Positions 5,154 through 52,107 of a stretch of DNA of 64,000 nucleotides are shown piece after piece. Positions within the stretch are counted from its first letter, which is position 1. Every line of letters starts with the position of its first letter. The notes under the pieces were generated by a model. It worked only from the letters and a program-made list of their open reading frames with translations, was not told the DNA's origin and did not search any database. The stretch is taken from assembly GCF_988243305.1 (NCBI RefSeq), contig NZ_OZ547136.1; one strand, 5' to 3'. The translations under genes and the position numbers were made by a program.

Positions 5154-6695
<1,542 letters not shown>

Positions 6696-6780
6696 CCTTA
6701 AAGAAGCGTTCTTTGAAGTGCTCACACAGATTGTCTGATAGAAAGTGAAAAGCAAGGCGTCTTGCGAAGCAGACTGACAC

Positions 6781-6856
6781 GTCCCCTTCGTCTAGAGGCC
6801 CAGGACACCGCCCTTTCACGGCGGTAACAGGGGTTCGAATCCCCTAGGGGACGCCA
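6781..6856 (+). tRNA. gltT: tRNA-Glu (anticodon UUC) in 16S-23S spacer
   Basis: GTCCCCTTCGTCTAGAGGCCCAGGACACCGCCCTTTCACGGCGGTAACAGGGGTTCGAATCCCCTAGGGGACGCCA, 76 nt. Confidence 0.95.
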
Positions 6857-7049
6857 CTTGCTGGTTTGTGAGTGAAAGTCACCTGCCTTGATATCTCAAA
6901 ACTCATCTTCGGGTGATGTTTGAGATATTTGCTCTTTAAAAATCTGGATCAAGCTGAAAATTGAAACACTGAACAACGAAAGTTGTTCGTGAGTCTCTCA
7001 AATTTTCGCAACACGATGATGAGTCGAAAGAAACATCTTCGGGTTGTGA

Positions 7050-9953
<2,904 letters not shown>

Positions 9954-10045
9954 ACAACGCCGAAGCTGTTTTGGCGGATGAGAGAAGATTTTCAGCCTGA
10001 TACAGATTAAATCAGAACGCAGAAGCGGTCTGATGAAACAGAATT

Positions 10046-10165
10046 TGCCTGGCGGCCTTAGCGCGGTGGTCCCACCTGACCCCATGCCGAACTCAGAAGT
10101 GAAACGCCGTAGCGCCGATGGTAGTGTGGGGTCTCCCCATGCGAGAGTAGGGAACTGCCAGGCAT
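10046..10165 (+). rRNA. rrfB: 5S ribosomal RNA (rrnB operon)
   Basis: TGCCTGGCGGCC...GGGAACTGCCAGGCAT, 120 nt. Confidence 0.95.
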
Positions 10166-10179
10166 CAAATTAAGCAGAA

Positions 10180-10207
10180 GGCCCAGTCGGAAGACTGGGC
10201 CTTTTTG
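10180..10207 (+). terminator. rrnB intrinsic terminator (single hairpin + T-tract)
   Basis: GGCCCAGTC-ggaa-GACTGGGCC followed by TTTTTGCG. Confidence 0.7.
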
Positions 10208-10299
10208 CGTTTCTACAAACTTTCCCTGTCGTCATAACTACAAGCCATCCCCCCACAGATACGGTAAACTAGCCTCGTTTTTGCATCAGGAAAGCAGCT

Positions 10300-11328
10300 A
10301 TGAACCACTCCTTAAAACCCTGGAACACATTTGGCATTGATCATAATGCTCAGCACATTGTATGTGCCGAAGACGAACAACAACTACTCAATGCCTGGCA
10401 GCATGCAACCGCAAAAGGACAATCCGTTCTTATTCTGGGTGAAGGAAGTAATATACTTTTTCTGGAAGACTATCGCGGTACGGTGATCATCAACCGGATC
10501 AAAGGTATCGAAATTCATGATGAACCTGATGCGTGGTATTTACATGTAGGAGCCGGAGAAAACTGGCATCGCCTGGTAAAATACACTTTGCAGGAAGGTA
10601 TGCCTGGTCTGGAAAATCTGGCATTAATTCCTGGTTGTGTCGGCTCATCACCTATCCAGAATATTGGTGCTTATGGCGTAGAATTACAGCGAGTTTGCGC
10701 TTATGTTGATTGTGTTGAACTGGCGACAGGCAAGCAAGTGCGCTTAACTGCCAAAGAGTGCCGTTTTGGCTATCGCGACAGTATTTTTAAACATGAATAC
10801 CAGGATCGCTTCGCCATTGTAGCCGTAGGTCTGCGTCTGCCAAAAGAGTGGCAACCTGTACTAACGTATGGTGACTTAACTCGTCTGGATCCTACAACAA
10901 TAACGCCACAGCAAGTATTTGATGCGGTGTGTCATATGCGCACCACCAAACTTCCTGACCCAAAAGTGAATGGCAATGCCGGTAGTTTCTTCAAAAACCC
11001 TGTTGTATCTGCCGAAACGGCTAAAGCATTACTGGCACAATTTCCAACAGCACCAAATTATCCCCAGGCGGATGGTTCAGTAAAACTGGCAGCAGGTTGG
11101 CTTATCGATCAGTGCCAGCTAAAAGGGATGCAAATGGGTGGGGCTGCGGTGCACCGTCAACAGGCGTTAGTTCTCATTAATGAAGACAATGCAAAAAGCG
11201 AAGATGTGGTGCAACTGGCACACCATGTAAGACAAAAAGTGGGTGAAAAATTTAATGTCTGGCTTGAGCCTGAAGTCCGCTTTATTGGTGCATCAGGTGA
11301 AGTGAGCGCAGTGGAGACGATTTCATGA
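10300..11328 (+). CDS. murB: UDP-N-acetylenolpyruvoylglucosamine reductase MurB, 342 aa
   Basis: ORF track; recognised product; ATGA overlap with birA. Confidence 0.9.
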
Positions 11329-12287
11329 AGGATAACACCGTGCCACTGAAATTGATCGCCCTATTAGCGAACGGTGAATTTCACTCTGGCGAGCAGTTGG
11401 GTGAAACGCTGGGAATGAGCCGGGCGGCTATTAATAAACACATTCAGACACTGCGTGACTGGGGCGTTGATGTCTTTACCGTTCCGGGTAAAGGATACAG
11501 CCTGCCTGAGCCTATCCAGTTACTTAATGCTGAACAGATATTGGGTCAGCTGGATGGCGGTAGTGTAACTGTGCTGCCCGTTATTGACTCCACGAATCAG
11601 TACCTTCTTGATCGTATCGGAGAGCTTAAATCGGGCGATGCCTGTGTTGCAGAATACCAGCAGGCTGGCCGTGGTCGCCGGGGTCGGAAATGGTTTTCGC
11701 CTTTTGGCGCAAACTTATATTTGTCGATGTTCTGGCGTCTGGAACAAGGCCCGGCGGCGGCGATTGGTTTAAGTCTGGTTATCGGTATCGTGATGGCGGA
11801 AGTATTACGCAAGCTGGGTGCAGATAAAGTTCGTGTTAAATGGCCTAATGACCTCTATCTGCAGGATCGCAAGCTGGCAGGCATTCTTGTGGAGCTGACT
11901 GGCAAAACCGGCGATGCGGCGCAAATAGTCATTGGAGCCGGGATCAACATGGCAATGCGTCGTGTTGAAGAGAGTGTCGTTAATCAAGGGTGGATCACGC
12001 TGCAGGAAGCCGGGATCAATCTCGATCGTAATACGTTGGCGGCCATGCTGATACGTGAATTACGCGCGGCGCTGGAACTCTTCGAGCAAGAAGGATTGGC
12101 ACCTTATCTTTCGCGCTGGGAAAAGTTGGATAATTTTATTAATCGCCCAGTGAAACTTATCATTGGTGATAAAGAAATATTTGGCATTTCACGCGGAATA
12201 GACAAACAGGGCGCTTTATTGCTTGAGCAGGATGGAATAATAAAACCCTGGATGGGCGGTGAAATATCCCTGCGTAGTGCGGAATAA
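11325..12287 (+). CDS. birA: Biotin-protein ligase / bio operon repressor BirA, 320 aa
   Basis: ORF track; N-terminal HTH region plus ligase domain with GRGRRGR motif. Confidence 0.9.
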
Positions 12288-46539: not shown

Positions 46540-48081
<1,542 letters not shown>

Positions 48082-48242: not shown

Positions 48243-48435
48243 CTTGCTGGTTTGTGAGTGAAAGTCACCTGCCTTAATATCTCAAAACTCATCTTCGGGT
48301 GATGTTTGAGATATTTGCTCTTTAAAAATCTGGATCAAGCTGAAAATTGAAACACTGAACAACGAAAGTTGTTCGTGAGTCTCTCAAATTTTCGCAACAC
48401 GATGATGAATCGAAAGAAACATCTTCGGGTTGTGA

Positions 48436-51339
<2,904 letters not shown>

Positions 51340-51431: not shown

Positions 51432-51551
51432 TGCCTGGCGGCCGTAGCGCGGTGGTCCCACCTGACCCCATGCCGAACTCAGAAGTGAAACGCCGTAGCG
51501 CCGATGGTAGTGTGGGGTCTCCCCATGCGAGAGTAGGGAACTGCCAGGCAT
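51432..51551 (+). rRNA. rrfE: 5S ribosomal RNA (rrnE operon)
   Basis: TGCCTGGCGGCC...GGGAACTGCCAGGCAT, 120 nt. Confidence 0.95.
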
Positions 51552-51565
51552 CAAATTAAGCGAAA

Positions 51566-51591
51566 GGCCATCCGTCAGGATGGCCTTTTTG
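51566..51591 (+). terminator. rrnE intrinsic terminator
   Basis: GGCCATCC-gtca-GGATGGCC followed by TTTTTGCG. Confidence 0.75.
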
Positions 51592-51607
51592 CGTTGGTGA
51601 AAAAAAT

Positions 51608-51643
51608 GCCGGGTGCGACGCTGGCGCGTCTTCTCCAGCCTGG
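51608..51643. repeat. REP-like (repetitive extragenic palindrome) sequence
   Basis: GCCGGGTGCGACGCTGGCGCGTCTTCTCCAGCCTGG resembles the E. coli REP family (GCCKGATGCGRCG...RCGYCTTATCMGGCCTAC) with mismatches. Confidence 0.45.
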
Positions 51644-51663
51644 GCAGGCACGGCAGGGGCAGC

Positions 51664-52107
51664 TTATTCCCCCACATACGCCAGATTCAGCAACGGATAC
51701 GGTTTCCCCAAATCGTCCACCTCAGAGCGTCCCGTAACCTTAAAACCCATCTTCTTATAGAACCCAACAGCCTGCTTATTTTGCTCATTAACATTGGTTG
51801 TCAGTTCCGGTGCCATCGAGAGCGCATGTTCCACCAGCATCCGACCCACGCCGCAGCCGCGCACATCAGGATCGATAAACAGCGCATCCATATGCTGCCC
51901 ACTTAACAACATAAACCCAACCGGCCGATCCCGCTCATTAACCGCGACCCACAACGGCGCTTCCGGCAGGAAGGAACGAACTAGCTCCTCCAGCTCGGCC
52001 CGATACTCTGCTGATAAAAAATCGTGAGTGGCATCGACAGAACGACACCAAATCGCAACCAGTTCCTCCCCTTCCTCATGCCGTGAGCGGCGAATACTAA
52101 TAACCAT
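51664..52107 (-). CDS. yjaB: GNAT-family N-acetyltransferase YjaB, 147 aa
   Basis: ORF track; acetyl-CoA binding region RGCGVGRMLVEHAL. Confidence 0.85.
   Translation of the reverse strand: MVISIRRSRHEEGEELVAIWCRSVDATHDFLSAEYRAELEELVRSFLPEAPLWVAVNERDRPVGFMLLSGQHMDALFIDPDVRGCGVGRMLVEHALSMAPELTTNVNEQNKQAVGFYKKMGFKVTGRSEVDDLGKPYPLLNLAYVGE

Follow-up and report, generated by a model that had tools for sequence, protein, structure and literature searches.

A single-hairpin end of the rrnB operon is a common natural variant in Escherichia coli

Main

In the 64,000-nt stretch of Escherichia coli DNA analysed here (the window), the rrnB ribosomal RNA operon ends in one terminator hairpin that is followed directly by murB. 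We put the probability at roughly 85% that this interval (10166-10299) is the normal rrnB 3' end of an E. coli lineage without the rrB module. The single-hairpin rrnB end is a common natural variant of E. coli, an ordinary allele and not an oddity. K-12 has tandem terminators, T1 and T2, because a 168-nt cassette sits between its 5S gene and a T2-type hairpin, and the window has a single terminator because its strain is without this rrB insert.

The extra K-12 DNA is the published rrB tRNA-linked repeat/RrB sRNA gene (PMC8144298). In that work (Stenum et al. 2021) rrA, rrB and rrF are "tRNA-linked repeats", a family for which it cites Egan & Landy 1978 and Rudd 1999, and each ends in 18-19 nt that copy the 3' end of the RNA gene before it. 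Read-through of T1 produces them, processing yields sRNAs with in vitro binding to Hfq and CsrA, and the repeats are conserved among enterobacterial genera; in K-12 the element is present at rrnA, rrnB and rrnD (PMC8144298). The window allele is already represented in databases, and its difference from K-12, being explained by a published element, is already known.

Results

The operon is identified as rrnB because the next ORFs are murB and birA. The features used below are, by position in the window:

5154-10163, + strand: rRNA operon, 16S-tRNA-23S-5S (Rfam)
5154-6695 (16S), 6781-6853 (tRNA) and 7050-9953 (23S), + strand: upstream genes of rrnB (Rfam operon search)
10046-10165, + strand: rrfB, mature 5S rRNA of 120 nt and last gene of rrnB (sequence and alignment to K-12 rrfB)
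10166-10173, + strand: 5S trailer CAAATTAA, AU-rich and single-stranded (unpaired in the fold)
10174-10208, + strand: intrinsic terminator hairpin (fold, inverted repeat, covariation)
10202-10212, + strand: terminator U-tract TTTTTGCGTTT (sequence; same as the K-12 rrnB T2 tail)
10213-10299, + strand: rrnB-specific spacer, presumed murB promoter, leader and ribosome-binding site (conservation across Enterobacteriaceae)
10300-11328, + strand: murB (UDP-N-acetylenolpyruvoylglucosamine reductase), first gene past the terminator (ORF list; RefSeq annotation of matching genomes)
11325-12287: birA, next after murB (ORF list)
46540-48081 (16S), 48436-51339 (23S) and 51432-51551 (5S): rrnE operon (Rfam)
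51552-51596, + strand: single rrnE terminator with a T2-type stem (Rfam operon, sequence, fold)

The rrfB gene scores 93.2 bits against Rfam RF00001 (10048-10163), and the ends of the mature 5S were set from the sequence together with an alignment to annotated K-12 rrfB. From the 5S end at 10165 to the murB start at 10300 the interval is 134 nt, exactly as an earlier reading made from the letters alone (the sequence-only reading) had it. The interval has no Rfam match, even at E <= 1, and the only ORFs overlapping it are tiny mechanical ones.

Three side observations concern the operon and its surroundings. At 10057-10058 within rrfB the window has GGCGGCCTTAGC where K-12 rrfB has GGCGGCAGTAGC, and these two variable 5S positions read CG, AC, TT, AA or TG across Enterobacteriaceae species. 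Inside murB, at 10391-10401, 11 nt match the 5S tail perfectly in inverted orientation (ATGCCTGGCAG vs CTGCCAGGCAT at 10155-10165), which is probably a chance match. The Rfam 'StyR-44' matches (~124 bits) at 6934-7042 and 48320-48428 fall in the 16S-23S spacers directly upstream of 23S and are a regular component of the 23S leader in the operon.

The interval holds one inverted repeat, with arms at 10178-10188 and 10193-10203, and an inverted-repeat and sequence search of 10166-10299 finds neither a second hairpin nor a second copy of the 5S tail. The single hairpin with a GGAA loop and a T-tract that the sequence-only reading described after rrfB is thus what the search returns. Its GC core, GGCCCAGTC-GGAA-GACTGGGCC at 10180-10201 and followed by T5GCGT3, consists of a 9-bp stem (10180-10188 with 10193-10201) that includes seven G-C pairs and encloses the GGAA loop (10189-10192). 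A-U and G-U pairs that GCAGAA (10174-10179) forms with the first letters of the T-run lengthen the stem. The RNA folds at -26.8 kcal/mol, compared with -11.6 +/- 2.7 kcal/mol for 200 shuffles, none of which is as good (z = -5.6), and the core alone reaches -18.8 kcal/mol in the window, -15.8 in T1 and -14.7 in T2. Two defining features of an intrinsic terminator are therefore present, a stable GC-rich RNA hairpin and a U-rich tract (UUUUUGCGUUU, 10202-10212) directly 3' of the stem.

The stem is also kept among natural alleles. Among 12 distinct alleles, pairing is kept in 98.6% of cells and three pairs show compensatory double changes, and 3 of 500 shuffles do as well; the set is small and its sequences are related to each other, and we read this covariation as supportive rather than as a probability. 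Changes that keep the stem include A-U to G-C in E. albertii, C-G to U-A in E. whittamii and A-U to G-U in O157:H7. A simple consensus promoter/terminator scan of 9800-10800 did not flag the terminator, likely because four T's of the tail are taken up by the A/U pairs that lengthen the stem. We rejected this null as evidence against a terminator, given that fold, inverted repeat and covariation are all clear.

The window hairpin has the anatomy of a strong intrinsic (Rho-independent) terminator. The T1 stem and the T2 tail are experimentally established terminators, and termination activity of the window hairpin is predicted from its near-identity to both. CAAAT follows the 5S end in every E. 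coli terminator allele compared; RNase E processes the 9S precursor of 5S, and the CAAAT trailer would be the 3' RNase E processing segment of that precursor.

Downstream of the hairpin, upstream sequences of murB from ~35 species show a block, ACAAGCC...ATACGGTAAACTA...TTTTTGCATCAGGAAAGC..ATG (also written …GCATCAGGAAAGC…ATG), that is conserved across Enterobacteriaceae. The last ~87 nt before murB presumably hold the murB promoter, leader and ribosome-binding site, and at the threshold of the scan no sigma-70 consensus match is found in 9800-10800. As a separate observation, Escherichia sp. MOD1-EC7003 (1-421) has unrelated, apparently coding DNA instead of an rrn terminator upstream of the conserved murB leader, and the rrnB-murB junction seems disrupted or rearranged on this short contig.

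In K-12 MG1655 the distance from rrfB to murB is 300 nt, compared with 134 nt in the window, and the alignment of the two has one net gap of 166 nt, the very shortfall that the sequence-only reading had given. It had also described K-12 as having tandem T1 and T2 terminators separated by a partial 5S-like repeat, about 300 bp in total, and K-12 indeed has the tandem and an 18-nt repeat of the 5S tail within its 300 nt; an identical single hairpin at K-12 rrnB, which would have undone the contrast, is not there. The hybrid look holds up in numbers as well. The left flank of the window hairpin matches K-12 T2 at 14/14 positions and T1 at 10/14, the right flank matches T2 at 20/20 and T1 at 8/20, and the stem-loop matches rrnB T1 at 20/22, rrnA T1 at 21/22 and T2 at 11/22.

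The K-12 unit from the 5S end to the second AACTGCCAGGCAT copy is 168 nt long at rrnB, rrnA and rrnD, the three copies differing from one another at 1-6 positions. The net difference from the window is 166 and not 168 because the window hairpin is 2 nt longer than T2. Each module starts from the T1 hairpin, continues with the conserved RNA (RrB) and includes the 18-nt 5S-tail repeat (AACTGCCAGGCATCAAAT); 18-nt direct repeats, 168 nt apart in K-12, bound it. This direct reading of K-12 rrnA, rrnB and rrnD agrees with PMC8144298. Rfam has no family for the K-12 T1-T2 spacer, even at E <= 1. The window rrnB locus carries AACTGCCAGGCAT once, as opposed to twice in K-12, the RrB core (three stem-loops, GGATTTGAACGTTGCGAAGCAACGGCCCGGAGG...) has no match anywhere in the 64-kb window with up to 3 mismatches allowed, and two tandem hairpins after 5S are absent, there being a single inverted repeat in 10166-10299.

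We counted both arrangements among 5,426 complete E. coli genomes, as the sequence-only reading had proposed. The window hairpin with the rrnB-specific flank, taken as a BLAST-type match with >=80% coverage, occurs in 2,124 genomes (~39%), and strains with a single T1-like hairpin include O157:H7, CFT073, UTI89 and ST131. The K-12-type tandem (module end, T2 and rrnB flank) occurs in 2,521, including K-12 and O111:H8. Subtracting both from the 5,394 genomes with an rrnB-murB junction leaves ~750 with neither form, at least some of which, such as A21005-2, have a single T2-type hairpin; single T2-type alleles have no count of their own, as BLAST joins two pieces in long-form genomes, and a share of ~10% is suggested by sampling. 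Phylogroups of named strains follow general knowledge of those strains and not a tree. The closest relatives of the window over 3.3 kb are NY1601 (100%), GF60 and the MS 69-1 / ST2747 group, and FDAARGOS_943 has a 281-nt match that is 100% identical.

The module itself is present somewhere in 3,977 of the 5,426 genomes, leaving 1,449 without a copy at megablast sensitivity, and at rrnD in 3,250. It is found only at rrnD in O157:H7 and in three copies in K-12, and rrA, rrB and rrF are polymorphic at all three loci. In some genomes there are up to 10 places with a module. The within-species distribution of rrA/rrB/rrF is not described in PMC8144298, nor did we find it in the literature searched, and polymorphism of the rrnB 3' end is not mentioned in PMC6735719 or PMC5179076.

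For outgroups we used a MurB-anchored scan with one genome per species, giving 80 Enterobacteriaceae loci (Salmonella and E. fergusonii lie outside these), mostly on draft contigs broken at the rrn operon; 43 of the 80 reach a complete 5S end. Among these 43 informative loci, 41 have no second 5S-tail copy before murB, and the median distance from 5S to ATG is 144 nt. E. albertii, E. whittamii and other Escherichia species have no module between 5S and murB. Most outgroup loci have a T2-type core. A T1-type core in T2-type context is found in E. albertii (GGCCCGGTC-GAAA-GACCGGGCC) and E. whittamii (GGCTCAGTC-GAAA-GACTGAGCC), and also in Phytobacter massiliensis, Citrobacter amalonaticus ku-bf3, Enterobacteriaceae RIT691 and Kosakonia oryzendophytica.

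In Kluyvera genomosp. 3 and Citrobacter portucalensis, murB does have a module ahead of it. The 5S tail occurs twice in Enterobacter sp. CC120223-11, which also has a hairpin of the T1 type, with the RrB-core pattern unmatched, and a module is possible on the partial contig of C. gillenii. The Kluyvera rrB copy differs from K-12 rrB at 5 of 168 positions, at a MurB identity of ~79%, which is in line with the published conservation of the element and reflects either very strong constraint or recent transfer. Since the module precedes murB in Kluyvera, Citrobacter and one Enterobacter, gains and losses are recurrent. By parsimony the single hairpin is probably ancestral at Escherichia rrnB and the K-12 tandem derived, and module loss in the window lineage could also have occurred.

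The terminators of other operons carry the same building blocks. Hairpin cores are of two types, CAGTC-GRAA-GACTG (T1-like) and ATCC-NNNN-GGAT (T2-like). GGCT-CAGTC is found in every rrB-module T1 sampled, and GGCC-CAGTC in every stand-alone hairpin sampled except those of PK8275, E. whittamii and Enterobacter sp. BIGb0383. The same hairpin and left flank as at window rrnB end rrnA in strains M1 and A31 and rrnE in PSS-07. Downstream of it, M1 rrnA and PSS-07 rrnE have ~75 nt in common, including a REP-like element, before their locus-specific flanks begin. The only difference between the window and PSS-07 at rrnE is a patch that comprises the hairpin and ~35 nt after it, and the rrB of O111:H8 has 5 differences from O157 rrF vs 12 from K-12 rrB. 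The hairpins common to rrnA and rrnE, the rrnE patch and the likeness of O111:H8 rrB to O157 rrF point to exchange among rrn operons.

The window rrnE terminator has the stem GGCCATCC-GTCA-GGATGGCC (51566-51585), followed by T5GCG, and folds at -24.5 kcal/mol. Several observations on this locus are given for the record. Its GTCA loop is the exact reverse complement of the TGAC in K-12 T2 and rrnG, which looks like a loop inversion within the palindrome; Escherichia sp. ESNIH1 also has a GTCA loop, before murB. PSS-07 rrnE has a T1-like core where the window has the T2-type. The gene next after rrnE in K-12, yjaA, is absent at 51600-52107 of the window. A minus-strand ORF of 147 aa (51664-52107) comes first after rrnE, located where PSS-07 has yjaB, and a REP-like element lies between it and the rrnE terminator.

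Discussion

The simplest account of 10166-10299 is an rrnB 3' end that has no rrB module. Transcription of the operon would stop at one Rho-independent terminator, with a 9-bp GC stem, a GGAA tetraloop, an A/U extension and U5GCGU3, and this hairpin would at the same time provide the 5S precursor with its 3' end. Homologous exchange (gene conversion), with the identical 5S gene as its anchor, may carry hairpin cores and the rrB cassette from one rrn operon to another, a mechanism that we infer from the patterns of likeness between operons. The window allele is one common combination of core and flanks.

The hybrid look could itself be taken as the scar of a deletion, in which T1 and T2 of a K-12-type T1-rrB-T2 ancestor recombined, removing 166 bp and leaving a chimeric hairpin. 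Such an event would give the T1-like stem-loop (20-21/22), the T2 right flank (20/20) and a size difference of exactly one module, and patchwork alleles do exist, given that the stand-alone hairpin of PK8275 carries T1's GGCT in T2 context. However, a single crossover keeps the T1 left flank (CAAATAAAACGAAAGGCT), and the window has that of T2 (14/14 vs 10/14), so that this origin needs two exchanges within ~22 nt. The window also has GGCC where every module T1 sampled has GGCT, other strains have an identical hairpin and left flank at the end of rrnA or rrnE, and ahead of murB the same hairpin is found in E. albertii, Phytobacter massiliensis, Citrobacter amalonaticus and Kosakonia oryzendophytica. 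We hold recombination between T1 and T2 to be highly improbable. The sequence-only reading had offered it beside an unduplicated ancestral state; the latter is favoured by the 41 of 43 outgroup loci that lack a second 5S tail, and the former goes unsupported, given the T2 left flank and the GGCC.

Loss of the module in two steps is very unlikely, although each step has a parallel. Slippage at, or recombination between, the 18-nt direct repeats that bound the module would delete it and leave 5S followed directly by T2, as is seen with K-12-type downstream flanks in A21005-2 and others, and conversion of the T2 core to a T1-like one from another rrn operon would be a core swap at a fixed locus of the kind seen at rrnE between the window and PSS-07. 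It invokes two events where none is required, however, and the outgroup Escherichia are already single-hairpin, E. albertii with a T1-like core. The downstream-flank haplotype of the window (CAAACTTTCCC...CATAACTAC) moreover differs from that of K-12 and A21005-2. As for an assembly or sequencing artefact, the repeated 5S tail could have collapsed and the module been lost, assembly errors being typical of such a setting, with an 18-nt repeat flanking the module and a multi-copy rRNA operon beside it. Yet the same contiguous arrangement stands in 2,124 independently finished genomes, collapse of a K-12-type end would give a T2 stem, from which the window stem differs, and NY1601 (3.3 kb) and FDAARGOS_943 (281 nt) match at 100% identity. 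The chance of an artefact is negligible, and we regard it as effectively refuted by the genome counts, the stem type and the identical matches.

With the interval read as a normal rrnB end lacking the rrB module, the biological importance at large is little, and the one by-product of mild novelty is how the presence and absence of the rrA/rrB/rrF modules is distributed over the species. The textbook T1-T2 tandem of rrnB, together with the vector part taken from it, belongs to K-12-like strains and not to E. coli as a species, and anyone annotating or designing primers across rrnB-murB should allow for a length polymorphism of 166 bp. Many clinical lineages lack the RrA/B/F sRNAs known from K-12 at one or all of the loci, which bears on claims of conserved function. 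It is conceivable, if on balance unlikely, that the copy number of the RrA/RrB/RrF genes, co-transcribed with rRNA and coupled to growth rate, is a lineage-structured polymorphism of E. coli through which single-terminator strains might differ from K-12; if true, the difference might lie in CsrA/Hfq titration and in rrn read-through to murB-birA.

Among known terminators, rrnB T1 is a widely used terminator part. The stem-loops of K-12 rrnB, rrnA and rrnD T1 match that of the window at 20-21 of 22 positions with a GNRA-type loop in both, and T1 and the window hairpin both stand directly after the CAAAT of the 5S trailer. T1 differs from the window in its U-G pair (GGCT) and in flanks that form a long perfect palindrome (AAAACGAAAGG...CCTTTCGTTTT). 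Position is shared with K-12 rrnB T2, which sits, as do the near-identical single rrnG terminator and the second rrnA hairpin, at the same place relative to the 5S tail as the window hairpin. T2 and the window also have in common the left flank CAAATTAAGCAGAA (14/14), the tail with downstream sequence TTTTTGCGTTTCTACAAACT (20/20) and an A/U-extended stem, whereas their stem cores differ, being GGCC-CAGTC-GGAA-GACTG-GGCC (9 bp) in the window and GGCC-ATCC-TGAC-GGAT-GGCC (8 bp) in T2. Of the published work, PMC3643576 covers only the efficiency of the K-12 rrnB and rrnD T1 terminators. In K-12, T1 is partly read through and is followed by the RrB sequence (PMC8144298), whereas only murB lies behind the window hairpin. 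The insertion point of the rrA/rrB/rrF repeats is exactly the window junction after the 5S tail, and the window represents the empty site.
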